From Narcine bancroftii (taxonomy: Eukaryota): DNA of 64,000 nucleotides. The notes below the pieces were generated by a model. The model saw only the letters and a list, made by a program, of their open reading frames with translations. It did no database searches and was not told where the DNA came from. The position numbers were made by a program, and so were the translations under genes. Below are positions 5,682 through 64,000 of the stretch, in pieces (position 1 is the first letter of the stretch; each line of letters starts with the position of its first letter). Location of the stretch: NCBI RefSeq assembly GCF_036971445.1, contig NC_091470.1:192820001-192884000 (forward strand), in the 5' to 3' direction.

Positions 5682-7576
5682 CTCTGGGTAGGACCACTCG
5701 GGAGAGAAGTCGGTGATGCACGCGGTCTGGCTGTTCTCTGCACCATTGGAGGAGGCTGCAGGAGTGGCTAGGTCATCGGGGAAGGGCAATGAGCCAGTAG
5801 AGTCCATGGGTTGCAGGGAAGCCTGTTGTGGTGGCGGGGGGCTGTAGGTAGCCAAGGGGCAGGATACCTTGGGGTACTGGCCCAGCACCTCTGCTGCTCG
5901 TCCCAGGCTGTACTGACCGTGGCCCCTGGCGCCCTCTCTGCCGCCGTCCGCCATGAAATCTGGCATCAAGTCGGGGAACTGGCCGTCGAAAATGTCAAAG
6001 TGGTCAATGGCCAGGTCGATGTGATCTGGAGGCACGGGCGCCGAGGACAGGTCACTCTGGATGATGGAGTACAACTCGCTCACGTTGCCACACTGCAGTT
6101 CCGCATCCACCCCATCACCTGCCTCCAACTTGACAGCACTGCTCTGCAGGCTTGCTTTGTTCGCGTCTCCGTTCAACTGCGAGGTGTCCATGGGCGTTTC
6201 TCCCTCCGGGTCCACTGGCCGGATCGGCCCAGGTTCAGGAACGACCGCAGGGTGGAGATGCCCAGGCCCAGATGCAGGGTGAAGAGCCTTGGGCTCAGGC
6301 CTGGCCACAGGGCAGAGATCCATGGGCCCAGCTACAGAGCGGAGAGCCTCAGGCTCCGGGCAGTGATCTCCAGGCCCAGCAATGGAGCCGAGAGCCCCAG
6401 GCTCAGGCCTGGCCACAGGGCAGTGATCCGTGGGCCCAGACACAGGGCTGAGAGCCTCAGCCTCAGGCCCGGCTGCAGCGCCGAGATCCCTTAGCTCATG
6501 TGCAGGCCTACTTGTTTGGCTAAGAGCCCCAGCCCCAATCCCAGTGGTGGGCACCAGTTCCTCCTTCACACTGCTGCTGCCACAGGCCTCCCGGGTCTGC
6601 AGGTCCTCTGGCCCAGAGGGTGCTGCCTCTGACATGCCCGTGCCGTCTTTGCCAGTCTCGGCAGTGAAGTGGTGTGCTGAGGGCAGGGAACCACCTGGCG
6701 CCGTGTGCTGGGGCAAGGCTGTAGAGTAATCTGTGGACGAGGCGTAATCCATGTTCTCCAGTGTAGTAGCTGAGTGGAGGGCAGGAGACCCCATCCGCAC
6801 CTTGGTAGCCCTGGGCAGCATCTGTGAGAAGCTGGATGCAGAGGAGGAGTTCGAGACTCGGTTGTTGGACCGGGACACCTCACTCTCCCTCTTCAGCTCA
6901 GGCAGGCGGAAAGGCCTGGGGATTTGGCCCCTTCCTCCCCCGTACGTCTGGCCCTGTTTCGGGCTGTTCAGGAAGGAGTCGGGGTCAAAGATTTCGGTGT
7001 CCATGTGGGTCTCGGCGGCCTTGGGCAACGCCAGGTCTCCTGCAGAGCCGGGCAGCAGGGCTACGGCAACGGTGGAGGCCTGCGTGGGAGGCGTCACCCC
7101 CTTGTCCAATGCCCCAGCCTGCCCGCTGGTGGTCAGCTGCAGGCTAGGAGTCAGCCCTGGTCCGGCCAAGGGCTCCAGCTTCTCCCTGGTGCCCGCCATC
7201 AAGATCACGGCACCGCGCGGCAGGCAGCAGGCAGCCGTGCCGAGGCCTGGCACACTGGCAACTGGGCCGGGCTGGCGGTGGTTGGAGCAGCCGTTGGCAC
7301 GCCCAGCTGGGGAACGGCGTGAAGCATCGGGGTGGGACGGGAAGCCGGCAGAAGGAGGCTCGCTGCTCCCATTAGTGCAAGGGCCCGCGTTCAGCAGCTT
7401 GGCCGCCCTCTTGTCCTGGAGGCCGGCTTTGCTCTCGCCCTCCACCTTGCCGTCCCCCACCGACAGGTTCTGCACTTCTGTCAGAGCGGAGCAGGGCGTC
7501 AGCCGCACATCGATCTTCGGTGAGATAATCCGGTGCTTGGTGCTGTTACATCTGTGGGGAACAGTCCCAGCGCTGC
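5682..7576 (-). CDS. CAMTA2: CAMTA2 exon 8, large activation-region exon ending at the TIG start (ITDFSPEWSYPE)
   Basis: 1895-nt open exon with HRCNSTKHRIISPK, FDPDSFLNSPKQGQTYGG and ITDFSPEWSYPE; ttccag acceptor, GAG|GTGAGT donor. Confidence 0.95.
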
Positions 7577-13674: not shown

Positions 13675-13810
13675 CTCCATTCCCTGCACCTTCAGCTTCA
13701 TGTGGTCCTCCCTGGTGGTCTTCCCGTCCTTCCTCTTTTTCCAGCAGTACCCATCTTTCCGATACTTCACCTTCTTCCTGTTGTACAGGATTATCGAGCC
13801 GTTAAGTGGC
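13675..13810 (-). CDS. CAMTA2: CAMTA2 exon 4, CG-1 domain (PLNGSIILYNRKKVKYRKDGYCWKKRKDGKTTREDHMKLKVQGME)
   Basis: Near-invariant CG-1 sequence; aacag acceptor, GTGTGT donor, 136 nt. Confidence 0.97.
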
Positions 13811-15685: not shown

Positions 15686-16466
15686 TCTTTGGCTTGGCTT
15701 CGCAGACGAAGATTTATGGAGGGGGTAAAAAGTCCACGTCAGCTGCAGGCTCGTTTGTGGCTGACAAGTCCGATGCGGGACAGGCAGACACGATTGCAGC
15801 GGTTGCAAGGGAAAATTGGTTGGTTGGGGTTGGGTGTTGGGTTTTTCCTCCTTTGCCTTTTGTCAGTGAGGTGGGCTCTGCGGTCTTCTTCAAAGGAGGT
15901 TGTTGCCCGCCAAACTGTGAGGCGCCAAGATGCACGGTTTGAGGCGTTATCAGCCCACTGGCGGTGGTCAATGTGGCAGGCACCAAGAGATTTCTTTAGG
16001 CAGTCCTTGTACCTTTTCTTTGGTGCACCTCTGTCACGGTGGCCAGTGGAGAGCTCGCCATATAACACGATCTTGGGAAGGCGATGGTCCTCCATTCTGG
16101 AGACGTGACCCATCCAGCGCAGCTGGATCTTCAGCAGCGTGGACTCGATGCTGTCGACCTCTGCCATCTCGAGTACTTCGACGTTAGGGGTTTAAGCGCT
16201 CCAATGGATGTTAAGAATGGAGCGGAGACAACGCTGGTGGAAGCGTTCTAGGAGCCGTAGGTGATGCCGGTAGAGGACCCATGATTCGGAGCCGAACAGG
16301 AGTGTGGGTATGACAACAGCTCTGTATACGCTTATCTTTGTGAGGTTTTTCAGTTGGTTGTTTTTCCAAACTCTTTTGTGTAGTCTTCCAAAGGCGCTAT
16401 TTGCCTTGGCGAGTCTGTTGTCTATCTCATTGTCGATCCTTGCATCTGATGAAATGGTGCAGCCAT
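15686..16466 (-). mobile_element. RTE-clade LINE 3' end inserted in a (TA)n tract
   Basis: RLAKANSAFGRL...LERFHQRCLRSIL...QLRWMGHVSRMEDHRLPKIVLYGEL...CNRCNRVCLSRIGLVSH. Confidence 0.9.
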
Positions 16467-16744: not shown

Positions 16745-17530
16745 CCCACTGCCAGACTCACCTGGTGCATGGAGATCGTGACTACTGCAGACTCACCTGG
16801 TACACAAGACCCCAACCACTGCCATACTCACCTGGTACCTGGATATCCCAAACTCATCTGGTGCCTGGACATCCCAACCACTACGAAACTCACCTGGTGT
16901 GCGGAGATCCCGTCCACTGCCAGACTCACCTGGTGCACGGAGATCATGATGACTGCCAGACTCACCTGGTGCATGGAGATCCCAACCACTGTTAAATTCA
17001 CCTGGTGCCTGGACATCCCAACCACTGCCAAACTCACCTGGTGCATGAAGATCCCGTCCACTGCTAAACTCACTTGGTGTGCGGAGATCCTGACCACTGC
17101 CAGACTCACCTGGTGCCTGGACACCCCGACCACTGCCAGACTCACCTGGTGCGCAGAGATCCCGACCACTGCCAGACTCACCTGATCCATGGACATCCTG
17201 ACCACTGCCAAAGTCACTTGGTGCCTGGACATCCCAACCATTGCCAAACTCACCTGGTGCATGAAGATCCCGTCCACTGCTAAACTCACTTGGTGTGCGG
17301 AGATCCTGACCACTGCCAGACTCACCTGGTGCCTGGACACCCCGACCACTGCCAGACTCACCTGGTGCGCAGAGATCCCGACCACTGCCAGACTCACCTG
17401 ATCCATGGACATCCTGACCACTGCCAAAGTCACTTGGTGCCTGGACATCCCAACCACTGCTAAACTCACCTGGTGTGCAGAGATCCCAACAAATGCCAGA
17501 CTCACCTGGTGCGCGGAGATCCCGACAACC
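16745..17530 (-). repeat. 36-bp minisatellite built from the CAMTA2 exon 3 end and its donor
   Basis: About 22 copies of actgccagactcacctggtgcgcggagatcccgacc, with an internal 216-bp higher-order duplication. Confidence 0.92.
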
Positions 17531-17573
17531 ACTCTTCATGCCTCTCAAAGCTGGTCAGGTATGACGCAATCTC
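17506..17573 (-). CDS. CAMTA2: CAMTA2 exon 3, CG-1 domain (EIASYLTSFERHEEWLSGSPRTR)
   Basis: ctccag acceptor, AG|GTGAGT donor, 68 nt; EIASYL is CAMTA2-type. Confidence 0.95.
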
Positions 17574-17789
17574 CTGGAGGGACAAACAGAGTGCGGTGAA
17601 GGGGTGCTGACAGCTCACCTATTGTCCCCAGCTCCCCCCCAGCACCGGGGGGGGGACTCAGCTGGACTTCGGGGGGAAAAGGTTGGGGTGGAAGGCTGGG
17701 AGAATGGAAAGGGCAAAGATGGAGTGGATAGAGGTCAGGGGAACAGAGGGAGCAAATCGGGGGATGGATAGGGTAGAGGCAGCTAGAGG

Positions 17790-18533: not shown

Positions 18534-18637
18534 CTCGTTGGTGTTCCACCGCTGTCTCTCGTTGGGCAGGGATGCGCACTTGGGTAAGCTGTCAATCAGC
18601 TTGTTGGGCAGGAACACCTTGATGTGATTGTTATTTT
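18534..18637 (-). CDS. CAMTA2: CAMTA2 exon 2 (ENNNHIKVFLPNKLIDSLPKCASLPNERQRWNTNE)
   Basis: ttgcag acceptor; matches CAMTA KIFLPKKLLECLP...RWNTNE; 104 nt; GC-type donor GCAAGT. Confidence 0.95.
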
Positions 18638-20840: not shown

Positions 20841-21149
20841 TTTACTTCGATGTAATTACGACTACACTGGGGAAACTATGGGGTACAGCTCTGATACAGA
20901 CACAGACTGGGCCTGTGCTGACTTCTGACCCCGAGTTGATTCAAATTGCATTCAATGCATTTAGGTTGGAGTGTTTAAGCTGCACTCATTGGCAGCACAG
21001 CGGTGGAGAGGATCCCAGCTGTGGGGGAGCAGCAGAGAACACGGCACCACCTTGCCAAGTGATCATTAAGCAATATGTGACATCTCACAGCAGCAAGCAG
21101 GACAAGAATGATGAGAGACCTCCTGAAGGGCTCCACACTCCAACCGAGC

Positions 21150-24100
21150 CCAGACATGAACAGATCCACACACCGACAGAGCCGAGAGGACAGATCCACA
21201 CTCCATCGAGCACAGACACAAACAGATCCACACTCCAACAGAACCCAGAGAGGACGGATCGACACAACGACAGAGACAAGACAAGGGGCGAATCCACACA
21301 CCGACAGAGACAAGACAAGGGACGGATCCACACACCGACAGGCACCAGACAGCAGACAGATCCACACACCGACAGGCCCCAGACAGACGACGAATCCACA
21401 CACTGACAGGCCCCAGAGGAAGGATCCACACTCTGACAGGTTCAAGACAGAGGACAGTAACAGGTGTCAAAGGACAGATCCACACACCGACTGGCCCCAG
21501 AGGACAGATCCACACACCAACAGGCTCCAGAGGACAGATCCAATCACCGACAGGCCCCAGAGGACGGATCCACATACCGACTGGCCCCAGAGGACGGACC
21601 ACATACCGACAAGCCCCAGAGGACTGATCCACGCGCCGACAATCCCCAAAGGACGGATACACACAACGACAGGCCCCTGAGGACGGATCCATACACCAAC
21701 AGGCCCCAGAGGATGGATCAACACACCGACAGGTCCCTGAACATGGATCCACACACCGACAGGCCCCAGAGAACAGATCCACACAACGACAGGCCCCAAA
21801 CAGAGGACAGATCCACGCACTGACTGGCCCCAGAGGACAGATCCACACACCAACAGGCTCCAGAGGACAGATCCACATACCAAAAGGCCCCAAGGAAGGA
21901 TCCACACACCAACAGGCTCAAGACACAGGACAGTAACAGGTCCCAGAGGACAGATCTACACACTGACAGGCCCCAGAGAACAGATGCACCCACCGACAGG
22001 TCCCAGACGGAGGACTGATCAACACACCAACAGTCCCCAGAGATCGGATCCACACACCGACACACCTCAGAGGACAGATCCACACACAAGCAGGCCCCAG
22101 AGGTCAGATCCACACACACGGACTGGCCCCAGAGGACAGATCCACACATCGACATGCCCCAGAGGACGGATCCACACACCGACAGGCTCCAGACAGAGGA
22201 CAGTAACAGGTCCCAGAGGACAGATCCACACACTGACAGGCCCCAGAGTACAGATGCACACACCGATAGGCCTCCAACAGAGGACTGATCCACACACCGA
22301 CAGTCCCCAGAGGACAGATCCACATTACGACAGGCTCCAGAGGACAGATCCACATACCAAAAGGCCCCAAGGAAGGATCCACACACCAACAGGCTCAAGA
22401 CACAGGACAGTAACAGGTCCCAGAGGACAGATCTACACACTGACAGGCCCCAGAGAACAGATGCACCCACCGACAGGCCCCAGACGGAGGACTGATCAAC
22501 ACACCAACAGTCCCCAGAGATCGGATCCACACACCGACACACCTCAGAGGACAGATCCACACACAAGCAGGCCCCAGAGGACAGATCCACACACACGGAC
22601 TGGCCCCAGAGGACAGATCCACACATCGACATGCCCCAGAGGACGGATCCACACACCGACAGGCTCCAGACAGAGGACAGTAACAGGTCCCAGAGGACAG
22701 ATCCACACACTGACAGGCCCCAGAGTACAGATGCACACACCGATAGGCCTCCAACGGAGGACTGATCCACACACCGACAGTCCCCAGAGGACAGGTCCAC
22801 ATTCCGACAAGCCCCAGAGGACTGATCCACACACCGACAGTCCCCAGAGAACTGATCCACACACCGACAGATCCCAAACAGAGGACAGATCCACACACCG
22901 ACTGGCCCCAGAGGACAGGTCCACACACCAACAGGCCCCAGATGACAGATGCACTCACGGACAGGCCTCAGACAGAGGACAGATCCACACACTGACACAC
23001 CCCAGAGGACATATCCACACACCGACAGGCCCCAGAGGACAGATCCACACACCGACAGGCCCCAGAGGACAGATCCACACACTGACAGGTCCCAGAGGAC
23101 GGATTCGCACACCGACAAGCCCCAGAGGACGGATACACACACCAGCAGGCCCCAGAAAATGGATCCACACACCGACAGACCTCAGACAGAGGACAGATCC
23201 ACACACCGACAGGCCCCAGGGGACGGATTAACACACCCGCAGGACCCAGAAGATGAATCCACACACTGACAGGCCCCAGAGGAAGGATCCACACTCCGAC
23301 AGGTTCAAGACAGAGGACAGTAACAGGTGTCAAAGGACAGATCCACACACCGACTGGCCCCAGAGGACAGATCCACACACCAACAGGCTCCAGAGGACAG
23401 ATCCACTCACCGACAGGCCCCAGAGGACGGATCCACATACCGACTGGCCCCAGAGGACGGATCCACATACCGACAAGCCCCAGAGGACTGATCCACGCGC
23501 CGACAATCCCCAAAGGACGGATCCACACAACGACAGGCCCCTGAGGACGGATCCATACACCAACAGGCCCCAGAGGATGGATCAACACACCGGCAGGTCC
23601 CTGAACATGGATCCACACACCGACAGGCCCCAGAGGACGGATCCACACACCGACAGTCTCCAGTCAGAGGACAGTAACAGGTCACAGAGGACAGATCCAC
23701 ACACACCGACTAGCCCCAGACGACAGATCCAGACACCAACAGGCTCAAGAGGACAGATCCACTCACCGACAGGCCCCACAAGACGGATCCACACACCGAC
23801 AGGCCCCAGAGCAAGGATCCACACTACGACAGGTTCAAGACAGAGGACAGTAACAGGTATCAAAGGACAGATCCACACACCGACTGGCCCCAGAGGGAGG
23901 ACTGATTAACACACCAATAGTCCCCAGAGGACTAATCCACACAACGACAGTCCACAGAGGACAGATCCACACACCGACACATCCCAGATGACAGATTAAC
24001 ATACCGACAGGCCCCAGAGGACGGATCCACATACCGACAAGCCCCAGAGGATGGATCCACACACTGGCAGGCCCCAGAAGACGGATCCACACGCCGTCAG

Positions 24101-27100
24101 ACCCCAGAGGAATGATCAACACACTGGCAGGTCCCAGAAGATGGATCCACACACTGGCAGGCCCCAGAAGACGGATCCACACGCCGTCAGACCCCAGAGG
24201 AATGATCAACACACTGGCAGGTCCCAGAAGATGGATCCACACACCGACAGGCTCCAGACAGAGGACAGCAACAGGTCCCAGAGGACAGATCCACACACTG
24301 ACAGGCCCCAGAGTACAGATGCACACACCGACAGATCACAGACAGAGGACTGATCCACACACCGACAGTCCCCAGAGGACGGATCCACATTCTGACAAGA
24401 CCCAGAGTACTGATCCACACACCGACAGTCCCCAGAGAACAAAAACAGAGGACAGATCCACACACCGACTGGCCCCAGAGGACAGATCCACACACACGGA
24501 CTGGCCCCAGAGGACAGATCCACACATCGACATGCCCCAGAGGACGGATCCACACACCGACAGGCTCCAGACAGAGGACAGTAACAGGTCCCAGAGGACA
24601 GATCCACACACTGACAGGCCCCAGAGTACAGATGCACACACCGATAGGCCTCCAACAGAGCACTGATCCACACACCGACAGTCCCCAGAGGACAGATCCA
24701 CATTCCGACAAGCCCCAGAGGACTGATCCACAAACCGACAGTCCCCAGAGAACAGATCCACACAACGACAGGCCCCAAACAGATCCACGCACCGACTGGC
24801 CCCAGAGGACAGATCCACACACCAACAGGCTCCAGAGGACAGATCCACATACCAAAAGGCCCCAAGGAAGGATCCACACACCAACAGGCTCAAGACACAG
24901 GACAGTAACAGGTCCCAGAGGACAGATCTACACACTGACAGGCCCCAGAGAACAGATGCACCCACCGACAGGCCCCAGACAGAGGACTGATCAACACACC
25001 AACAGTCCCCAGAGATCGGATCCACACACCGACACACCTCAGAGGACAGATCCACACACAAGCAGGCCCCAGAGGACAGATCCACACACACGGACTGGCC
25101 CCAGAGGACAGATCCACACATCGACATGCCCCAGAGGACGGATCCACACACCGATAAGCCTCCAACAGAGGACTGATCCACACACCGACAGAGGACAGTA
25201 ACAGGTCCCAGAGGTCAGATCCACACACTGACAGGCCCCAGAGTACAGATGCACACACCGATAGGCCTCCAACAGAGGACTGATCCACACACCGACAGTC
25301 CCCAGAGGACAGATCCACATTCCGACAAGCCCCAGAGGACTGATCCACAAACCGATAGTCCCCAGAGAACAGATCCACACAACGACAGGCCCCAAACAGA
25401 GGACAGATCCACGCACTGACTGGCCCCAGAGGACAGATCCACACATCAACAGGCTCCATAGGACAGATCCACATACCAAAAGGCCCCAAGGAAGGATCCA
25501 CACACCGACAGGCTCAAGACACAGGACAGTAACAGGTCCCAGAGGACAGATCTACACACTGACAGGCCCCAGAGAACAGATGCACCCACCGACAGGCCCC
25601 AGACGGAGGACTGATCAACACACCAACAGTCCCCAGAGATCGGATCCACACACCGACACACCTCAGAGGACAGATCCACACACAAGCAGGCCCCAGAGGA
25701 CAGATCCACACACCAACAGGCCCCAGAGGACGGATCCACACACCCACAGTCCCCAGAGGACAGATGCACCCACCGACAGGCCCCAGACGGAGGAATGATC
25801 CACACACTGACAGGCCCCAGAGATCGGATGCACACACCCACAGTCCCCAGAGGACAGATCCACACACCGACAGGCCCCAGAGGACAGATCCACACACCGA
25901 CTGGCCCCAGAGGACGGATCCACACACCGACACGCCCCAGAGGACGGATCCACACACCGACTGGCCCCAGAGGACAGATCCACACACCGACAAGCCCCAG
26001 AGGACAGATCCACACACTGACTGGTCCCAAAGGACAGATCCACACATCAACAGGCCCAGACAGAGAACAGATGCACACACCGACAAGCCCCAGAGTATGG
26101 ATCAACACACCAACAGGCTCAAGACAGAGGACAGTCACAGGTCCTAGTGGATAGACCCACACTTGACAGGCCCCAGAGGACAGATGCACTCACCGACAGG
26201 CCCCAGAGGACAGATCCACACACCGACACACCCCAGAGGACAGATCCACACACCGGCAGGCCCCAGAGGACGGATCCACACACTGACAGGCCCCAGAGGA
26301 CGGATTTACACACCGACAAGCCCCAGAGGACGGATCCACACACCGACAGAACCCAGAGGACGGATCCACATACCGACAGCCTCCAGACCGAGGACAGTAA
26401 CAGGTCTCAGAGGACAGATCCACACACCGATTGGCCCCAGATGACAGATCACACACCAACAGGCTCAAGACAGAGGACAGTCACAGGTCCTAGTGGATAG
26501 ATCCACACTTGACAGGCCCCAGAGGACAGATGCACTCACCGACAGGCCCCAGAGGACAGATCCACACACCGACACGCCCCAGAGGACAGATCCACACACC
26601 GGCAGGCCCCAGAGGACGGATCCACACACCGACAGGCTCAAGGCAGAGGACAATAACAGGTTCCAGAGGACAGATCCACACACTGACAGGCCCCAGAGGA
26701 CAGATGCGCCCACCAACAGGCCCCAGACATAGGACTGATCAACATACCGACAGTCCGCAGAGGACTAATCCACACAACGACACACCAACACACCCCAGAG
26801 GACAGATCCACACACCAACAGGCCCCAGAGGACGGATCCACACACCGGCAGTCCCCACAAGACGGATCCACACACCGACATGCCCCAGAGAACAGATCCA
26901 CACACCGACAGGCCCCAAAAGAGGACAGATCCACACACCGACTGGCCACAGAGGACAGATCCACACACTCCGACTGGCCCCAGAGGACAGATTCACACAA
27001 ACTAACTGGCCCCAGAGGACAGATCCACACATCAACAGGCCCAGACAGAGAACAGATCCACACACCAACAGGCTTCAGAGGACAGATCCACTCTCCGACA

Positions 27101-28198
27101 GGCCCCAGAGGACGGATCCACATACCAAAAGGCCCCAGAGGACGGATCCACACACTGACAGGCTCAAGACAAAGGACAGTAACAGGTCCCAGAGGACTGA
27201 TCCACACACCGACAGGCCCCAGAGGAAAGATCCACACACCGACTGTCCCCAGAGGACAGATCCACACACCGACAAGCCCCAGAGGACTGATCCACACACC
27301 GACAGTCTCCGAAGAACAGATCAACACACCGACTGGCCCCAGAGGACAGATGCACACGCCGACAGTCCCCAGAGGACAGATCCACACGCCGACAGTCCCC
27401 AGAGGACAGATCCACACACTGACAGGCCCCATAGGACAGATCCACACACTGACAGGCCCCAGAGGACAGATCCACACACCGACAGTCCCCAGACAGAGAA
27501 CAGATCCACACACCGACTGGCCCCAGAGGACAGATCCACACACTGATTGGCCCCAGAAGACAGATCAACACACTGACAGGCTCAAGACAGAGGACAGTAA
27601 CTGGTCCCAGAGGACAGATCCACACACTGATAGGCCCCAGAGGACAGATGCACACACCGACAGGCCTCAGACAGAGGACTGATCCACACACCGACAGGCC
27701 CCAGAGGACGGATCCACACACCGACAGGCTCCAGACAGAGGACAGTAACAGGTCTCAGAGCACAGATCCACACACAGACAGTCCCCAGAGGACAGATCCA
27801 CACACCAACAGTCCCCAGAGGACAGATCCACACACCGACAGGCCCCAGAGGACAGATCCACACACCGACTGGCCCCAGAGGACAGATCCACACACCGACA
27901 CGCCCCAGAGGACAGATCCACACACGGACTGGCCCCAGAGGACAGATCAACACACTGACAGGCTCAAGACAGAGGACAGTAACAGGTCCCAGAGGACAGA
28001 TCTACACACTGACAGGCCCCAGAGGAGAGATGCACACACCGACAGGCCTCAGACAGAGGACTGATCCACACACCGACAGTCCCCAGAGACGGATCCACAT
28101 ACTGACAAGCCCCAGAGGACAGATCCACACACCAACAGGCCCCAGAGGACGGATCCACACACCAACAGGCCCCAGAGGACAGATCCACATACCAACAG
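21150..28198. repeat. ~7-kb 30-bp minisatellite with higher-order structure
   Basis: Unit aggacagatccacacaccgacaggccccag, over 200 copies by length; variant blocks recur. Confidence 0.95.
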
Positions 28199-29859: not shown

Positions 29860-30125
29860 AGTGGGAACCCGAGGGCCTCGGGAGCAGACTGAGCTCCCTG
29901 TCCCTGCCCCTGCACCCCGCGTCGGGCCCGGGTTCGCGTTGCCCGTCTCCGCACCACACCCACCTTCCGGCTTCATGACGGCCGCCATTTTACTTCCGAC
30001 TCCCATTGGCTCGAAGCCGCGCCCATTGGCAAGGCCCACCCTGTGCTGCATGTCTATTGGCTACTACTCCAATCAAGCATATAAAATGGGCGGTACTATT
30101 AGCTAGAAAATTAGCCAATTAGAAT
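29860..30125 (-). promoter_or_regulatory. CAMTA2: CAMTA2 CpG-island promoter
   Basis: YY1 motif GCCGCCATTTT over the ATG, an adjacent ETS-like CGGAAGT, five CCAAT/ATTGG boxes (30004-30119) and local CpG enrichment. Confidence 0.7.
29964..29988 (-). CDS. CAMTA2: CAMTA2 coding exon 1 (MAAVMKPE)
   Basis: AAAATGGCGG start context in a CpG-rich patch and a GAAG|GTGGGT donor in phase 1. It joins the 18637 exon in frame (MAAVMKPE-ENNNHIKVFLP) and resembles short vertebrate CAMTA N-termini (MAAENKPE-type, from memory). Confidence 0.75.
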
Positions 30126-35760: not shown

Positions 35761-35821
35761 GTTGTGTGTGGGGAGCAGAACCAAGGACTCATGGGACAGA
35801 GAGGGATGGGGCACTCCCTAC

Positions 35822-36024
35822 TGATCAATACAGCTCTGTCTCCTCTTGAGCTCCTCCAGGTGACAGGTCACGGCCAAGACTGGCCTCTGTCTGTGTGACC
35901 TGTCCCGGCCTCTCCTCCTGCCATACAGTTCTCTCGGGGAAGGCAGTCTTTCCAACATCAAGCCTGAGTTTGGGCAACTGGCATCCAATCTGGCATCTGG
36001 TCTCTCAGCAGCATGACCACTCAG
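35822..36024 (-). CDS. INCA1: INCA1-like coding exon 4, conserved core (LPSPRELYGRRR...LAVTCHLEELKRRQSCIDQ)
   Basis: 203 nt, AG/GT bounded; strong resemblance to human LPPPEMLWRRKKRR...RAVTYHLEDLRRRQSIINE. Confidence 0.85.
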
Positions 36025-36109
36025 CTGGAGAGAAAAGGTGGGGGGGAGAGAGGAAGAGTGTGTGTGAGTGAGGAACGAGTCAACAGCTGAGGTCCAGAGG
36101 CAAGGGAAA

Positions 36110-36470: not shown

Positions 36471-36634
36471 AGACATGCTGGGGGAGGGGAAGAATGGAGG
36501 TGTCATATGGAGAGGTCAGGGCACTGGGGACCAGCTCAGACTGGCCCTGGACACTGCCCTCGTCTCACCCTCCAGGAGACCATGCTCTCCCAGCAACCGA
36601 GGACAGGCACAGAGCTCCAACCAGGACTACTTAC

Positions 36635-36677
36635 CAATGGCAGGGGAGCTTTGTCATACATCTCCATCAAATGAGGT
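36635..36677 (-). CDS. INCA1: INCA1-like coding exon 3 (PHLMEMYDKAPLPL)
   Basis: 43-nt exon, ctacag acceptor, GTAAGT donor; bridges phase 2 to 0; positionally equivalent to human PTWLEEQHIPPML. Confidence 0.7.
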
Positions 36678-37644
36678 CTGTAGGACACAAGCAGAGAGCA
36701 CAGAATTGGAGAAAGGTTGCCTGTACCGTGGGCTCCCTTTCCCTCCCACCACACATCCCCCTCACCCCACCCCAAACCTCCCACCCTGGTGAACAGGGAG
36801 ACCCTCCCTCTCCCCAAAAGATGTTCACTGCCTCTCTCCTAACAAATGCCAACAGAAAGATGGGGCTCTAGTCTCCAGGGCTGACACTGCCATCAGTTGG
36901 CAACACCCCCCAGGGTGACGCACACTCTCCTCAGTGCTCCCAGACTGGACATTATCCCCTGACGTCCACCTCCCCCACCACAGAGGTCCTGTCCTTCTGG
37001 TCCTTCACCCCAAGAGGCATTGCATCACCCCTTCCCTAGCAAGCCTGTATTGGGTCTCAGGAGTTTGGACCACTTCCCGGGGAGGTTCATTTATTGTCAC
37101 ATAATGATGCATTAAATGTAATATGCATGGTATACTTCAACATTTGCCTGCAGCAAGGCAAACAAAGTCCCCAATAGCATGGCCCGGTGTCCCCAACAAG
37201 AGAAAGAGAAGCAAAAGAGACCCAAAGTGTCCATTGATATTTACCTCTAGTGCTAGTTCCGGCTCCTATGTCAGGCTGAAAGCCTGCACAGTACCATGAC
37301 CAGGGAATAGGACCCTGCAGAGCAGTGCTGTGCCTCTGCTCCCCCGGGTCTACACCAGCGGCAGGGTTGTCGTTACAGCAGCTCTGGCAGTGCCGCCATG
37401 TTCTTTTTACAATCTTCAAGTGACGTGCTTCACAAAGACTCCACAGGAGTGGAGGCTTAGCAGTAGGGCAGAACCAACAGAGTGGAGTTGGGGGGGGATG
37501 GTTGGGGAGTGAGGGGTGGACAATTTGAATTGTCCAATGGTAGTTGCAAAGCATCGGAATGCAAGTTAATACAGAGGGTCATCAAAACAGCCTAGAAGAT
37601 GACTGGGGTACTCATGTCCCTGAACAGGGAACTCTGGTACTTAC

Positions 37645-37761
37645 CTCCCCTGCTGGCTCAAGCCCTCCAGATCCACCCCACTGCCCCAGGTCCCTAGAGG
37701 AGGGGGGCACAATGGGCTGGGTTCAGCCTGGCCTTCGCACCGGTTCACCATCTTCGAACAC
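37645..37761 (-). CDS. INCA1: INCA1-like coding exon 2 (CSKMVNR...LEGLSQQGR)
   Basis: tgcag acceptor, AG|GTAAGT donor, phase 2-2; resembles human CSRVVSR...KNLNQRP. Confidence 0.75.
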
Positions 37762-38484
37762 CTGCACTGGGACAGGCAGAGGGTGTGGGAGGGGGGGGTT
37801 GAGGGAGGGATGAGGGTGAGAGTGGGAGAAGGGATAGGGAAATGGGAAAAGGGATAGGGGAGGAGGAGAGGGACATCAAAATTTGGTGAGAAAAAAGGGG
37901 GGACAGAGGCAGTGGGTGAGAGGGGGAGGAAGGGGGAGAGATGGGAGGAGGAGTGAAATGGGGAGAGGAAGAAAAGGAGAGGGGGTGAGAGAGGCAGGTG
38001 TGAAAGGGAGAGGGGGTAGAGGGAGAGGATGCGAGGGAGGGGAGAGGGGTAGGGAAATAGGGTTAGAGAAAGTGAGAGAAAAAAGGTGTGAGAGAATGGG
38101 GAGGGAGAGAGGGAAGGGGCTGAGAAAGATGGTGGAGGGAGAAGCAACAGGGATGGCAGGGGAGAGGGCTAGGAAGGAATGGAAAGGGATAGGAATGAGG
38201 GAGGGAGGAACAATAGGGATGCCAGGTGAGAGGGGATAGATTGTAGGAAAGCGAGAGAGTTGGGAAGAGAGAATAAACAGAAAGCATTAGAAGGAATAAA
38301 TGGGTTCTTTCAGTTTGGGAAGCTGTAACTGTGAGTGCATCAGGCTTCAGTGTTAGGTCACAGGTATTAGTGCTGGAGCCCTAGGGTTCAGTGCTGGGAC
38401 CCACGGATAAGTGCCAAGGACCCAGGGATCAGTCCGAGGATCCAGGGATCATGCCAAGGACCCAGGGATCAGTGCTGGGACCCC

Positions 38485-50389: not shown

Positions 50390-50905
50390 TCTTCTTTCTT
50401 TGGCTTGGCTTCGCGGATGGAGATTTAAGGAGGGGATAAATGTCCACGTCAGCTGCAGGCTCGTTTGTGGCTGACAAGTCCGATGCGGGACAGGCAGACA
50501 CGGTTGCAGCGGTTGCAGGGGAAAATTGGTTGGTTGGGGTTGGGTGTTGGGTTTTTCCTCCTTTGCCTTTTGTCAGTGAGGTGGGCTCTGCGGTCTTCTT
50601 CAAAGGAGGTTGCTGCCCGCCAAACTGTGAGGTGCCAAGATGCACGGTTTGAGGCGATATCAGCCCACTGGCGGTGGTCAATGTGGCAGGCACCAAGAGA
50701 TTTCTTTAGGCAGTCCTTGTACCTTTTCTTTGGTGCACCTCTGTCACGGTGGCCAGTGGAGAGCTCGCCATATAACACGATCTTGGGAAGGCGATGGTCC
50801 TCCATTCTGGAGACGTGACCCACCCAGCGCAGCTGGATCTTCAGCAGCGTGGACTCGATGCTGTCGACCTCTGCCATCTCGAGTACTTCGACGTGAGGGA
50901 TGAAA
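50390..50905 (-). mobile_element. Second RTE LINE 3' end, nearly identical to 15686-16190
   Basis: Same translated C-terminus with only a few substitutions. Confidence 0.9.
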
Positions 50906-52784: not shown

Positions 52785-53490
52785 TGGACCCTGCCCCTTT
52801 AATGCTGTGTTGGCGGTGGTGCTGGCTGATCCCTGCACCTTTAAGAGAGCCAAGGGGATCTGCTCCTTTAAAACTGCCGGCGGCAATGTCTGCGAGATGC
52901 CTGTCCGTTTAACACTCTACCATCGCCTTGCCCGGAGGGTACCTGCCCCTTTAACCCTCTGCTGATGCCTCACCTGTGGGGTATCTGCCACTAACCCTCT
53001 GCTGACTTGCCTGGAGGGTACCTGCCCCTTTAACATCGCCGACACTTTGCCGCGAGGTGCCTGCTTCTTTAATATTCAGCCGATGCTTTTCCAGCGAGAG
53101 ACTGTCCCTTTAACACCCTGCCAACGCCTTGCCCGCGGGGCGCCTTCCCCTTTAACACTCGCCTGATGCTTCACCTGTGGGGTGTCTGCCCCTTTTGCCG
53201 ACACCTTGCCTGGAGGGTACCTGACCCTTTAACACTGCCGACGCCTTGCCTGGAGGTACCTTGCCCGGAAGTTCCTGCCCCATTGACATTCTGCCGACGC
53301 CTGCCCGCAAAGTACCTGCCCCTTTAACATTCTGCCGACGCCTTGCCCGCTAGTGTCTGTCCCTTTAATATTCGGCAGACGCCTCGCCCGCGATAGACTG
53401 TCCCTTTAACGCTTTACCCGGAGGGTTGGTACCTGCCCCTTTAACACTCTACAGACGCCTCGCCCGCGGGACACTTGTCCCTTTAACAAC
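52785..53490. repeat. ~42-bp degenerate tandem repeat upstream of the KIF1C promoter
   Basis: About 16 copies of cctgcccctttaacactctgccgacgccttgcccg. Confidence 0.85.
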
Positions 53491-53813
53491 CCCGCAGGGT
53501 CGGGAGCGACCACGTGACCGGGAATGGCGACCGGCTCCTGACCGCGGACGTCAATCAGCGCCGAGCAGCCGCCCGTCCCGGACACGCCGGCCCGAGCCCC
53601 CACCCACCACCTCCCCCCTCCCGCCCGCCCGGCGCCACAGCCCCGCTTGGGAAAGTTTTCCCAAACTTCAGGAAAAGTTTTCTGGGGGCGGGGCGGGCCC
53701 CGCAGCGCCGGCAACGGGAACGCGCAATGCCGCCCCGGGCACCGGCAGGAGAAAGCGAGCCGAACCGGGAGGACGGAATGTGGAAGGGTGACAGGATCCT
53801 GCTGGCGGAGAGG
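53480..53813 (+). promoter_or_regulatory. KIF1C: KIF1C CpG-island promoter and probable non-coding exon 1
   Basis: E-box CACGTGAC at 53511, GACGTCA at 53547, GC boxes near 53685 and a candidate donor AGG|GTGAGA at 53814. Confidence 0.65.
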
Positions 53814-57654: not shown

Positions 57655-60600
57655 CCCCTTCCCCTTTCCTCCCCCCGCTGTTCCCTCTCCTCACCGCGCT
57701 GTTCGCTCTCCACCCCCCGCTGTTCCCTCTCCTCCCCCGCTGTTCCCTCTCCTCCCCCGCTGTTCCCTCTCCTCCCCCGCTGTTCCCTCTCCTCCCCCGC
57801 TGTTCCCTCTCCTCCCCCGCTGTTCCCTCTCCTCCCCCGCTGTTCCCTCTCCTCCCCCGCTGTTCCCTCTCCTCCCCCGCTGTTCCCTCTCCTCCCCCGC
57901 TGTTCCCTCTCCTCCCCCGCTGTTCCCTCTCCTCCCCCGCTGTTCCCTCTCCTCCCCCGCTGTTCCCTCTCCTCCCCCGCTGTTCCCTCTCCTCCCCCGC
58001 TGTTCCCTCTCCTCCCCCGCTGTTCCCTCTCCTCCCCCGCTGTTCCCTCTCCTCCCCCGCTGTTCCCTCTCCTCCCCCGCTGTTCCCTCTCCTCCCCCGC
58101 TGTTCCCTCTCCTCCCCCGCTGTTCCCTCTCCTCCCCCGCTGTTCCCTCTCCTCCCCCGCTGTTCCCTCTCCTCCCCCGCTGTTCCCTCTCCTCCCCCGC
58201 TGTTCCCTCTCCTCCCCCGCTGTTCCCTCTCCTCCCCCGCTGTTCCCTCTCCTCCCCCGCTGTTCCCTCTCCTCCCCCCGCTGTTCCCTCTCCTCCCCCC
58301 GCTGTTCCCTCTCCTCCCCCCGCTGTTCCCTCTCCTCCCCCCGCTGTTCCCTCTCCTCCCCCCGCTGTTCCCTCTCCTCCCCCCGCTGTTCCCTCTCCTC
58401 CCCCGCTGTTCCCTCCCCTCCCCCGCTCTTCCCTCCCCTCCCCCGCTCTTCCCTCCCCTCCCCCGCTCTTCCCTCCCCCCCCCCGCTCTTCCCTCCCCTC
58501 CCCCGCTCTTCCCTCCCCTCCCCCTGCTCTTCCCTCCCCTCCCCCCGCTCTTCCCTCCCCTCCCCCCGCTCTTCCCTCCCCTCCCCCCGCTCTTCCCTCT
58601 CCTCCCCCCGCTCTTCCCTCTCCTCCCCCCGCTCTTCCCTCTCCTCCCCCCGCTCTTCCCTCTCCTCCCCCCGCTCTTCCCTCTCCTCCCCCCGCTCTTC
58701 CCTCTCCTCCCCCCGCTCTTCCCTCTCCTCCCCCCGCTCTTCCCTCTCCTCCCCCCGCTCTTCCCTCTCCTCCCCCCGCTCTTCCCTCTCCTCCCCCCGC
58801 TCTTCCCTCTCCTCCCCCCGCTCTTCCCTCTCCTCCCCCGCTCTTCCCTCTCCTCCCCCGCTCTTCCCTCTCCTCCCCCGCTCTTCCCTCTCCTCCCCCG
58901 CTCTTCCCTCTCCTCCCCCCGCTCTTCCCTCTCCTCCCCCCGCTCTTCCCTCTCCTCCCCCGCTCTTCCCTCTCCTCCCCCCGCTCTTCCCTCTCCTCCC
59001 CCCGCTCTTCCCTCTCCTCCCCCCGCTCTTCCCTCTCCTCCCCCCGCTCTTCCCTCTCCTCCCCCCGCTCTTCCCTCTCCTCCCCCCGCTCTTCCCTCTC
59101 CTCCCCCCGCTCTTCCCTCTCCACCCCCCGCTCTTCCCTCTCCACCCCCCGCTCTTCCCTCTCCTCCCCCCGCTCTTCCCTCTCCTCCCCCCGCTCTTCC
59201 CTCTCCTCCCCCCGCTCTTCCCTCTCCTCCCCCGCTCTTCCCTCTCCTCCCCCCGCTCTTCCCTCTCCTCCCCCCGCTCTTCCCTCTCCTCCCCCCGCTC
59301 TTCCCTCCCCTCCCCCCGCTCTTCCCTCCCCTCCCCCGCTCTTCTCTCCCCTCCCCCGCTCTTCCCTCCACTCCCCCGCTCTTCCCTCCCCTCCCCGCTC
59401 TTCCCTCTCCTCCCCCCGCTCTTCCCTCTCCTCCCCCGCTCTTCCCTCCCCTCCCCCGCTCTTCCCTCCCCTCCCCCGCTCTTCCCTCCCCTCCCCCGCT
59501 CTTCCCTCCCCTCCCCCGCTCTTCCCTCCCCTCCCCCGCTCTTCCCTCCCCTCCCCCGCTCTTCCCTCCCCTCCCCCGCTCTTCCCTCCCCTCCCCCGCT
59601 CTTCCCTCCCCTCCCCCGCTCTTCCCTCCCCTCCCCCCGCTCTTCCCTCCCCTCCCCCCGCTCTTCCCTCCCCTCCCCCGCTCTTCCCTCCCCTCCCCCG
59701 CTCTTCCCTCCCCTCCCCCGCTCTTCCCTCCCCTCCCCTCGCTCTTCCCTCCCCTCCCCCGCTCTTCCCTCCCCTCCCCCCGCTCTTCCCTCCCCTCCCC
59801 CCGCTCTTCCCTCCCCTCCCCCCGCTCTTCCCTCCCCTCCCCCCGCTCTTCCCTCCCCTCCCCCCGCTCTTCCCTCCCCTCCCCCGCTCTTCCCTCCCCT
59901 CCCCCCGCTCTTCCCTCCCCTCCCCCCGCTCTTCCCTCCCCTCCCCCCGCTCTTCCCTCCCCTCCCCCGCTCTTCCCTCCCCTCCCCCGCTCTTCCCTCC
60001 CCTCCCCCCGCTCTTCCCTCCCCTCCCCCCGCTCTTCCCTCCCCTCCCCCCGCTCTTCCCTCCCCTCCCCCGCTCTTCCCTCCCCTCCCCCGCTCTTCCC
60101 TCCCCTCCCCCGCTCTTCCCTCCCCTCCCCCCGCTCTTCCCTCCCCTCCCCCGCTCTTCCCTCCCCTCCCCCCGCTCTTCCCTCCCCCCCGCTCTTCCCT
60201 CCCCCCCCGCTCTTCCCTCCCCCCCGCTCTTCCCTCCCCTCCCCCTGCTCTTCCCTCCCCTCCCCCCGCTCTTCCCTCCCCTCCCCCCGCTCTTCCCTCC
60301 CCTCCCCCCGCTCTTCCCCCCCCTCCCCCGCTCTTCCCTCCCCTCCCCCGCTCTTCCCTCCCCTCCCCCGCTCTTCCCTCCCCTCCCCCGCTCTTCCCTC
60401 CCCTCCCCCGCTCTTCCCTCCCCTCCCCACGCTCTTCCCTCCCCTCCCCCCGCTCTACCCTCCCCCCCCGCTCTTCCCTCCCCTCCCCCCGCTCTTCCCT
60501 CCCCTCCCCCCGCTCTTCCCTCCCCTCCCCCCGCTCTTCCTTCCCCTCCCCCCGCTCTTCCCTCCCCTCCCCCCGCTCTTCCCTCCCCTCCCCCCGCTCT

Positions 60601-63600
60601 TCCCTCCCCTCCCCCCGCTCTTCCCTCCCCTCCCCCGCTCTTCCCTCCCCTCCCCCCGCTCTTCCCTCCCCTCCCCCCGCTCTTCCCTCCCCTCCCCCCG
60701 CTCTTCCCTCCCCTCCCCCCGCTCTTCCCTCCCCTCCCCCCGCTCTTCCCTCCCCTCCCCCCGCTCTTCCCTCCCCTCCCCCCGCTCTTCCCTCCCCTCC
60801 CCCCGCTCTTCCCTCCCCTCCCCCCGCTCTTCCCTCCCCTCCCCCCGCTCTTCCCTCCCCTCCCCCCGCTCTTCCCTCCCCTCCCCCCGCTCTTCCCTCC
60901 CCTCCCCCGCTCTTCCCTCCCCTCCCCCGCTCTTCCCTCTCCTCCCCCGCTCTTCCCTCCCCTCCCCCGCTCTTCCCTCTCCTCCCCGCTCTTCCCTCTC
61001 CTCCCCCGCTCTTCCCTCTCCTCCCCCGCTCTTCCCTCTCCTCCCCCGCTCTTCCCTCTCCTCCCCCGCTCTTCCCTCTCCTCCCCCGCTCTTCCCTCTC
61101 CTCCCCCGCTCTTCCCTCTCCTCCCCCGCTCTTCCCTCTCCTCCCCCGCTCTTCCCTCTCCTCCCCCGCTCTTCCCTCTCCTCCCCCGCTCTTCCCTCTC
61201 CTCCCCCGCTCTTCCCTCTCCTCCCCCGCTCTTCCCTCTCCTCCCCCGCTCTTCCCTCTCCTCCCCCGCTCTTCCCTCTCCTCCCCCCGCTCTTCCCTCT
61301 CCTCCCCCCGCTCTTCCCTCTCCTCCCCCCGCTCTTCCCTCTCCTCCCCCCGCTCTTCCCTCTCCTCCCCCCGCTCTTCCCTCTCCTCCCCCCGCTCTTC
61401 CCTCTCCTCCCCCCGCTCTTCCCTCTCCTCCCCCCGCTCTTCCCTCTCCTCCCCCGCTCTTCCCTCTCCTCCCCCGCTCTTCCCTCTCCTCCCCCGCTCT
61501 TCCCTCTCCTCCCCCCGCTCTTCCCTCTCCTCCCCCCGCTCTTCCCTCTCCTCCCCCCGCTCTTCCCTCTCCTCCCCCGCTCTTCCCTCTCCTCCCCCGC
61601 TCTTCCCTCTCCTCCCCCCGCTCTTCCCTCTCCTCCCCCCGCTCTTCCCTCTCCTCCCCCCGCTCTTCCCTCTCCTCCCCCCGCTCTTCCCTCTCCTCCC
61701 CCCGTGCTCTTCCCTCTCCTCCCCCCGCTCTTCCCCTCTCCACCCCCCGCTCTTCCCCGCTCTCCCTCCTCTCTCCCCCGCTCTTCCCTCTCCTCCCCCC
61801 GCTCTTCCCTCTCCTCCCCCCGCTCTTCCCTCTCCTCCCCCCCGCTCTTCCTCTCTCCTCCCCCGCTCTTCCCTCTCCTCCCCCCGCTCTTCCCTCTCCC
61901 TCCCCCCGCTCTTCCCTCTCCTCCCCCCGCTCTTCCCTCTCCTCCCCCCGCTCTTCCCTCTCCTCCCCCCGCTCTTCCCTCTCCTCCCCCCGCTCTTCCC
62001 TCTCCTCCCCCCGCTCTTCCCTCTCCTCCCCCCGCTCTTCCCTCTCCTCCCCCCGCTCTTCCCTCTCCTCCCCCGCTCTTCCCTCTCCCCCGCTCTTCCC
62101 TCTCTCCCGCTCTTCCTCTCTCCCCCGCTCTTCCCTCTCCTCCCCCCGCTCTTCCCTCTCCTCCCCCGCTCTTCCCTCTCCTCCCCCCGCTCTTCCCTCT
62201 CCTCCCCCGCTCTTCCCTCTCCTCCCCCGCTCTTCCTCTCCTCCCCGCTCTTCCCTCTCCTCCCCCGCTCTTCCCTCTCCTCCCCCCGCTCTTCCCTCTC
62301 CTCCCCCCGCTCTTCCCTCTCCTCCCCCCGCTCTTCCCTCTCCTCCCCCGCTCTTCCTCTCCTCCCCCGCTCTTCCCTCTCCTCCCCCCGCTCTTCCCTC
62401 TCCTCCCCCCGCTCTTCCCTCTCCTCCCCCCGCTCTTCCCTCTCCTCCCCCCGCTCTTCCCTCTCCTCCCCCCGCTCTTCCCTCTCCTCCCCCCGCTCTT
62501 CCTCTCCTCCCCCCGCTCTTCCCTCTCCTCCCCCGCTCTTCCCTCTCCTCCCCCGCTCTTCCCTCTCCTCCCCCCGCTCTTCCCTCTCCTCCCCCCGCTC
62601 TTCCCTCTCCTCCCCCGCTCTTCCCTCTCCTCCCCCCGCTCTTCCTCTCCTCCCCCGCTCTTCCTCTCTCCCCCGCTCTTCCTCTCCTCCCCCGCTCTTC
62701 CCTCTCCTCCCCCCGCTCTTCCCTCTCCTCCCCCCGCTCTTCCCTCTCCTCCCCCCGCTCTTCCCTCTCCTCCCCCCGCTCTTCCCTCTCCTCCCCCCGC
62801 TCTTCCCTCTCCTCCCCCCGCTCTTCCTCTCCTCCCCCCGCTCTTCCCTCTCCTCCCCCCGCTCTTCCCTCTCCTCCCCCCGCTCTTCCCTCTCCTCCCC
62901 CCGCTCTCCCTCTCCTCCCCCGCTCTTCCCTCTCCTCCCCCGCTCTTCCCTCTCCTCCCCCCGCTCTTCCCTCTCCTCCCCCGCTCTTCCTCTCCTCCCC
63001 CGCTCTTCCCTCTCCTCCCCCCGCTCTTCCCTCTCCTCCCCCCGCTCTTCCCTCTCCTCCCCCCGCTCTTCCCTCTCCTCCCCCCGCTCTTCCCTCTCCT
63101 CCCCCCGCTCTTCCTCTCCTCCCCGCTTCCTCTCTCCCCGCTCTTCCCTCCCTCCCCCCGCTCTTCCCTCCCCTCCCCCCGCTCTTCCCTCCCCTCCCCC
63201 CGCTCTTCCCTCCCCTCCCCCCGCTCTTCCCTCCCCTCCCCCCGCTCTTCCCTCCCCTCCCCCGCTCTTCCCTCCCTCCCCCGCTCTTCCCTCCCCTCCC
63301 CCGCTCTTCCCTCCCCTCCCCCGCTCTTCCCTCCCTCCCCCGCTCTTCCCTCCCCTCCCCGCTCTTCCCTCCCCTCCCCCCGCTCTTCCCTCCCCTCCCC
63401 CGCTCTTCCCCTCCCCTCCCCCGCTCTTCACCTCCCCTCCCGCTCTTCCCTCCCCTCCCCGCTCTTCCCTCCCCTCCCCGCTCTTCCTCCCCTCCCCGCT
63501 CTTCCCTCCCCTCCCCGCTCTTCCCTCCCCTCCCGCTCTTCCCTCCCCTCCCCGCTCTTCCCTCCCCTCCCCGCTCTTCCCTCCCCTCCCCGCTCTTCCC

Positions 63601-64000
63601 TCCCCTCCCCGCTCTTCCCTCCCCTCCCCCGCTCTTCCATCCCTCCCCCGCTCTTCCCTCCCCTCCCCCGCTCTTCCCTCCCCTCCCCGCTCTTCCCTCC
63701 CCTCCCCCGCTCTTCCCTCCCCTCCCCCGCTCTTCCCTCCCCTCCCCCCCCTCTTCCCTCCCCTCCCCCCTTCTTCCCTCCCCTCCCCCCCTCTTCCCTC
63801 CCCTCCCCCCCTCTTCCCTCCCCTCCCCCCCCTCTTCCCTCCCCTCCCCCCCTCTTCCCTCCCCTCCCCCCCTCTTCCCTCCCCTCCCCCCCTCTTCCCT
63901 CCCCTCCCCCCCTCTTCCCTCCCCTCCCCCCCTCTTCCCTCCCCTCCCCCCCTCTTCCCTCCCCTCCCCCCCTCTTCCCTCCCCTCCCCCCCTCTTCCCT
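57655..64000. repeat. >6-kb 20-21-bp polypyrimidine/polypurine satellite
   Basis: (ccgctgttccctctcctccc)n changes to (ccgctcttccctc[t/c]cctcccc)n and runs off the right edge. Confidence 0.97.

Follow-up and report, generated by a model that had tools for sequence, protein, structure and literature searches.

The CAMTA2-like host gene

The window, by which is meant the whole stretch of DNA analyzed, comprises 64,000 nucleotides of Narcine bancroftii contig NC_091470.1 (positions 192,820,001 to 192,884,000 of assembly GCF_036971445.1), and all positions given below are counted within it. On its sequence, the host gene was assigned as a minus-strand CAMTA2-like gene, in agreement with the original prediction. 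Across the 330 residues scored, the exon at 7575-5682 showed 100% identity to a N. bancroftii CAMTA2-like protein, which was the top protein match, and the next 12 matches were all CAMTA2. The Pfam CG-1 domain was detected in exons 4 and 5. Since exon 4 corresponds to profile positions 34-78 (E 1.9e-17), exon 3 is deduced to lie in the first third of CG-1. Exons 2, 3, 6, and 10, searched singly (four of the seven queries), gave no match to Pfam.

Exon 2 ends GAG/GC, the NCBI proteins run across this GC donor, and intron 2 (18533-17574, minus strand) is a GC-AG intron. The acceptor of exon 3 is pyrimidine-rich, with a share of 0.82. In isoform X2 the exon at 3699-3573 (minus strand) is shorter by its first 24 residues, which fits an internal acceptor trimming the TIG domain. 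CAMTA2 is immediately preceded, on its own strand, by an INCA1-like gene at 35821-36027, with further likely exons near 36633-36678 and 37641-37763; the match of the frame at 35821-36027 to Pfam was weak (E 1.6e-4) and below the curated cut-off. In human, too, the order is INCA1-CAMTA2, with the genes adjoining. In isoform X3 of the CAMTA2-like protein of Mobula birostris, PF15142 (INCA1) is found alongside the CAMTA domains, and this protein is deduced to represent either read-through transcription from INCA1 into CAMTA2 or a gene model in which the two are fused. The coordinates of the features around exon 3 are collected in Table 1.

Table 1. Features of the CAMTA2-like gene and of the array that follows exon 3 (window positions)
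Feature	Position	Strand	Basis
First exon 1a, coding part, isoform X3	29964..30006	-	tblastn
Alternative first exon, isoforms X1 and X2	28459-28315	-	tblastn
CAMTA2 exon 2, 104 nt, followed by GC donor	18534..18637	-	tblastn
CAMTA2 exon 3, 68 nt, ends in phase 2	17506..17573	-	tblastn of NCBI isoforms
Authentic 5' splice site CAG/GTGAGT, first intron base 17505	17500..17508	-	NCBI isoforms X1-X3 join here
Minisatellite, ~22 units	16746..17526	-	TRF, unit alignment
21 downstream donor copies: 15 CAG/GTGAGT, 5 weakened with GT, 1 without GT (16857)	16756..17472	-	
Six-unit (216-bp) higher-order duplication	17026..17456	.	Unit alignment, exact repeat
CAMTA2 exon 4, 136 nt, acceptor for all donors	13675..13810	-	Pfam CG-1, tblastn

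Anatomy of the donor array

The minisatellite was reported by TRF with a period of 36 bp, 22.0 copies, 76% matches, and a score of 778, together with a higher-order period of 216 bp. The unit alignment resolved the repeat unit into the last 23 nt of exon 3, CAG included, and the first 13 nt of intron 3, with the first unit straddling the real exon 3/intron 3 boundary; the exon itself was confirmed by the NCBI isoforms. On the minus strand, 22 donor positions were counted, the authentic one being first. They recur every 36 nt from 17505 to 16857 and then at steps of 26, 35, and 35 nt. With the authentic site included, the donor 9-mers were CAG/GTGAGT (16 of 22), CAA/GTGAGT (two), CAA/GTGACT (two), CAG/GTGAAT (one), and CAG/ATGAGT (one), so that GT is kept in 20 of the 21 downstream copies. 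The authentic site carries T at +13, where most copies have G.

These data uphold the earlier description of about 22 tandem donor copies directly after CAMTA2 exon 3, derived from the exon 3 junction, with the true donor at 17505 and the decoys mostly intact. The 36-nt spacing claimed throughout holds down to 16857 but not for the last three steps, and the unit does span the junction, although its exon part had been given as about 22 nt plus CAG. The term "functional" had been extended to the whole array; it is appropriate for the first site, where the annotated proteins join, but not as a status given to the copies. When judged by U1 pairing counts and duplex energies, the copies could plausibly bind U1.

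The concentration of the junction sequence at this position was examined across the window. The sequence CAGGTGAGT matched 17 times on both strands, with 16 of the matches inside the array, and a 12-nt junction pattern matched 19 times, with 18 matches within the array, against 0.79 expected by chance; 19 matches were reached by none of 100 shuffles.

Since most units have CAG directly before GT, they could in principle be read as recursive or acceptor sites (AG/GT), or, given two minus-strand frames that stay open for 235-253 codons, as a coding extension. No strong acceptor was found directly before the GT, as a recursive splice site would have. The units have no polypyrimidine tract: their pyrimidine share was 0.47-0.65, with purine runs, compared to 0.59-0.88 in eight real acceptors. 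The open frames differ from the frame of exon 3 and are explained by a unit that is free of stops and divisible by three in length. The longest of the frames open across the array gave no match at E 0.001 among 7999 candidate proteins of 139-443 aa, a comparison that is not a test of conservation. Both the recursive and the coding interpretation are considered extremely unlikely.

Origin and turnover of the array

Relative to the authentic junction, the copies carry differences at 3-10 of 36 nt, with one shifted unit differing at 15. Neighboring units were on average 78% alike, and pairs at a lag of six units were up to 100% alike. The array contains a 215-bp perfect duplicate, 17026-17240 being identical to 17242-17456, which suggests recent turnover. 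Among the distinct changes relative to the consensus, 15 of 29 were G>A or C>T.

The perfect 215-bp block could alternatively reflect false duplication in the assembly, in which case the copy number would be partly an artefact and the true array would have ~16 units. The identity of the two blocks lends some substance to this, as other units differ by about 20%. However, the differences in the flanks of the block are graded, and recent duplication of blocks is normal for minisatellites. With ~16 units, the locus would also be read in the same way. An artefact of this kind is judged very remote, and even when taken jointly, the recursive, coding, and artefact readings are highly improbable.

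The data are best accommodated by an origin, ordinary for a minisatellite, in which 36 bp spanning the exon 3/intron 3 junction were duplicated in tandem, in a region very rich in such repeats, and so seeded the array; unequal exchange or slippage would then have amplified the unit. The copies drifted, mostly through G/C to A/T changes and CpG decay, and the six-unit block was duplicated recently. Exon 3 stays intact because new copies land in the intron.

Tandem repeats make up 34% of the window, which holds 46 arrays with a period of at least 15, and one of the 22 exon ends tested touches an array. For the first 30 kb, a rough estimate puts the number of junction-spanning seeds arising by chance at 0.24-0.43. 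Given this expectation and the repeat content of the window, no special cause is needed for an array that starts at a donor.

Consequences of downstream donor use

Reading through the first donor gives AGG TGA, with the TGA at 17504-17502, which is codon 67 counted from the ATG at 29988. It had been claimed that use of any downstream donor introduces an in-frame stop within CG-1, and this proved correct: all 21 downstream positions give a stop, which falls at codon 73 or 107 in the annotated ORFs and, according to which start is used, 199-319 nt from the start codon. In each of these 21 cases the alternative site would produce a PTC upstream of later junctions, as is expected of an element of regulated unproductive splicing (AS-NMD). 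The stop requires no design, since any phase-2 GTGA or GTAA donor gives one. Stops this near the start codon can partly escape NMD, a point that would be relevant only with actual use of the copies.

The first donor serves the junction between exons 3 and 4 in three of the four named N. bancroftii isoforms (X1-X3), such models giving no shares. The fourth, isoform X4 (XP_069775883.1), begins at the exon-4 Met (13701, minus strand) and is without about two thirds of CG-1. This raises the question of whether a sizeable part of splicing goes to donors 2 and 4 as an unselected, tolerated cost, with CAMTA2 output lowered via NMD or with a CG-1-truncated protein made from the exon-4 Met. Such a cost would be set by the first few units rather than by the total copy number. 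This reading is regarded as possible though unlikely. It is favored by the observation that the exon-4 Met, the start of X4, is the next in-frame start for 19 of the 21 downstream positions. The same isoform is, however, equally explained by another first exon or by exon 3 skipping, which would also leave the exon-4 Met as the start, and X4 was rejected as evidence of decoy use because it is not specific. Furthermore, among 174 proteins examined, 11 from other species likewise have their start at exon 4 or just before it (Heterodontus, Hypanus, Bombina, and several CAMTA1), and the Heterodontus and Hypanus CAMTA2 models that start there carry short N-termini of their own. N-termini that bypass exon 3 thus recur in CAMTA1 and CAMTA2 models of other vertebrates and perhaps come from a start site in intron 3. 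The spacing of exons 3 and 4 was the same in 123 of the 174 proteins, and none had an insertion; 32 were unclassed by the motif used.

Contigs of four runs from one study, presumed to be of RNA, gave no match to 17385-17785, a stretch that takes in the first three copies and exon 3 with the flank upstream of it; as exon 3 itself was bare as well, this result speaks neither for nor against use of the copies.

Comparison with known arrays and the favored interpretation

The arrangement is already known as a class of junction-spanning minisatellites, found in F7, IFI6, CBS, and ABCA7 and in the amphioxus "mirages." As in these, the array at CAMTA2 runs head to tail, its first unit spans the boundary, and the splice signal is repeated. 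On this CAMTA2 locus and on tandem repeats of N. bancroftii, nothing was found in a literature of mostly open-access coverage.

The accessible portions of the study of the human F7 intron 7 37-bp VNTR (Borensztajn et al. 2006, PMC1557585) describe use of the first donor only, alike for 1 to 12 units, and show that the copies work once the first donor is destroyed. Among the sequences tried there, CAG/gtgagt alone competed, reaching 70-90% use against a weaker first site; competition between perfect donors lay outside the tests described. The two arrays resemble each other in having the first unit across the junction and in donor spacing (37 nt in F7 and 36 nt in CAMTA2). In contrast, F7 has 5-9 units with 4 exon nt per unit and a moderate donor (TGG/gtgggt), whereas CAMTA2 has 22 units with 23 exon nt per unit, a perfect CAG/GTGAGT, and drifted copies. 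The splicing outcome was measured in F7.

Further cases are cited in the same portions of that study (PMC1557585). Two of the 25 pseudo-sites are used in IFI6 (6-16) intron 2 and two in CBS intron 13, in both genes the two nearest, and none is used in the LMNB2 and PDGF intron 4 minisatellites. With CAMTA2 these arrays share junction-spanning units and 10-25 repeated donors, the 25 of IFI6 being close to the 21 downstream copies seen here. For the human ABCA7 intron 18 25-bp VNTR, the available part of the report (De Roeck et al. 2018, PMC5954066) describes a second donor whose use leaves one unit in the mRNA and so produces a PTC transcript sensitive to NMD, at an apparent level of about 2% and unaffected by VNTR size. 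There, too, the array starts at the donor, and the mechanism proposed in the original prediction is itself displayed; however, the ABCA7 unit begins at GT and shifts the frame, while a retained CAMTA2 unit is in frame with an immediate stop. In the amphioxus mirages (Adh3 and globin genes), boundary duplications were accompanied by no apparent splicing disturbance, according to the part of that report at hand (PMC3087553). These are likewise minisatellite-like, with intact splice signals and block-wise turnover, but they occur in a cephalochordate, have units of 10-160 bp on both acceptor and donor sides, and show length instability. The accessible text of PMC10078293 held nothing relevant to repeated donors.

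From these precedents, the array is probably a selectively neutral minisatellite with a dominant first donor and at most a small leak that would be cleared by NMD and would be independent of copy number. As in F7, most transcripts would be spliced from the donor that comes first after exon 3, and the copies, although probably able to bind U1, would mostly be passed over. Any leak would go mainly to the second donor (+36), yielding the CG-1 stop as a minor NMD substrate that does not scale with copy number. Some leak at +36 is plausible and likelier than in F7, since the first site and 15 copies are of perfect consensus, and because exon 3 is short (68 nt), use of the donors at +36 or +108 would still give an exon of ordinary length (104 or 176 nt).

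A larger leak, with the sizeable share for donors 2 and 4 raised above, is the next reading in likelihood. The competition by CAG/gtgagt pseudo-sites in F7 points in that direction, as does the use of the two nearest pseudo-sites in IFI6 and CBS and of one in ABCA7. In addition, the available part of a study in nuclear extract (PMC3413131) reports that, between two strong donors, splicing went almost wholly to the downstream one in vitro. Against this stands the strong first-site preference of F7 in cells, within what is accessible of PMC1557585. With perfect sites behind a 68-nt exon, the array could also escape the first-site rule altogether, so that downstream donors serve a large share of transcripts, varying with tissue or allele, and these stop at the start of CG-1 and are degraded or re-initiated at the exon-4 Met to give the DNA-binding-deficient X4. 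This is considered very unlikely; if true, a lineage-specific repeat would toggle the CAMTA2 of an electric ray between a full-length form and one without CG-1.

Opposite predictions follow from the first-site rule seen in cells and the downstream-site rule seen in vitro for the CAMTA2 array, which, with about 16 equal perfect-consensus donors at 36-nt steps, constitutes a natural test case beyond the F7 tests. If downstream donors were to carry a large regulated share, a young repeat would have brought a conserved transcription factor under control of its dose or isoforms. As it stands, the array adds a further case to a class known from human and amphioxus genes.

Conservation of the donor cores

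It had further been proposed that the array, by binding U1, could tune CAMTA2 through unproductive splicing to a degree that depends on copy number, or might aid exon definition. Selection for such a role should be visible in the donor cores, and changes were counted on a tree built from 14 distinct units in register, the last three, out-of-register units being left out. The nine donor columns (of 36) carried 5 of 41 parsimony changes, about half of the 10.25 expected (raw P of 0.04), and the donor window ranked in the top 3 of 36 for conservation. This signal weakened with control for base composition: P was 0.09-0.11 without the CpG columns and 0.10 when stratified by base type. All five changes in the donor core fell at the G of -1, +1, or +5, positions that are important for U1 pairing. 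In seven control arrays or array pieces, the quietest 9-nt windows had 0.13-0.77 of the expected changes, compared to 0.37 for the CAMTA2 array. The evidence for selection on the donor cores thus amounts to a weak hint at most.

The tuning proposal draws further on the retention of GT in 20 of the 21 copies and of the full 9-mer in 15, and on the stop that follows from every downstream donor use. The stop, however, is generic to phase-2 GTGA donors, and the array is only one among the 46 minisatellite-type arrays of the window. Copy number was without effect on donor choice in F7 (PMC1557585) and on the PTC isoform of ABCA7 (PMC5954066) in the portions available of both reports. Without significant extra conservation of the donor cores, copy-number-dependent tuning through NMD is not borne out. 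An effect of length by another route is conceivable, since ABCA7 VNTR length drives skipping of the next exon, as described in the accessible part of PMC5954066. The exon-definition version fares no better: the GC donor beside which the array was thought to act is that of exon 2, about 1 kb upstream, while exon 3 has its own pyrimidine-rich acceptor and a perfect donor. Tuning or exon definition under selection is accordingly judged very unlikely, and in our analysis a regulatory role of the array is not supported.

RNA structure was considered as a possible selector of the first site and rejected, since the authentic donor is predicted to be no more open than the copies (unpaired probability of 0.001 compared to 0.001-0.14). 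The predicted fold of exon 3 with six units was less stable than that of shuffles (z +1.8).

Other repeats in the window

Several other repeats were observed. Intron 1 contains ~7 kb of a 30-bp repeat (~229 copies, 21132-28198) just downstream of the alternative first exon, and a 60-bp duplication of 1.9 copies was found by TRF at 6358-6473, inside the large coding exon 9. A 21-bp array at 57662-64000 (312 copies, 96% matches), with one strand almost all pyrimidine, runs past the end of the window. A 41-42-bp array at 52890-53410 (minus strand) holds eight donor-like AG/GT[AG] words and lies beside a CpG-rich stretch at 53450-53800; this is perhaps another array that bears donors, at a putative non-coding first exon. 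Finally, a pair of near-identical fragments was found at ~15690-16460 and 50400-50900 (minus strand), the former in intron 3 downstream of the array; both resemble the 3' end of an RTE-type LINE.
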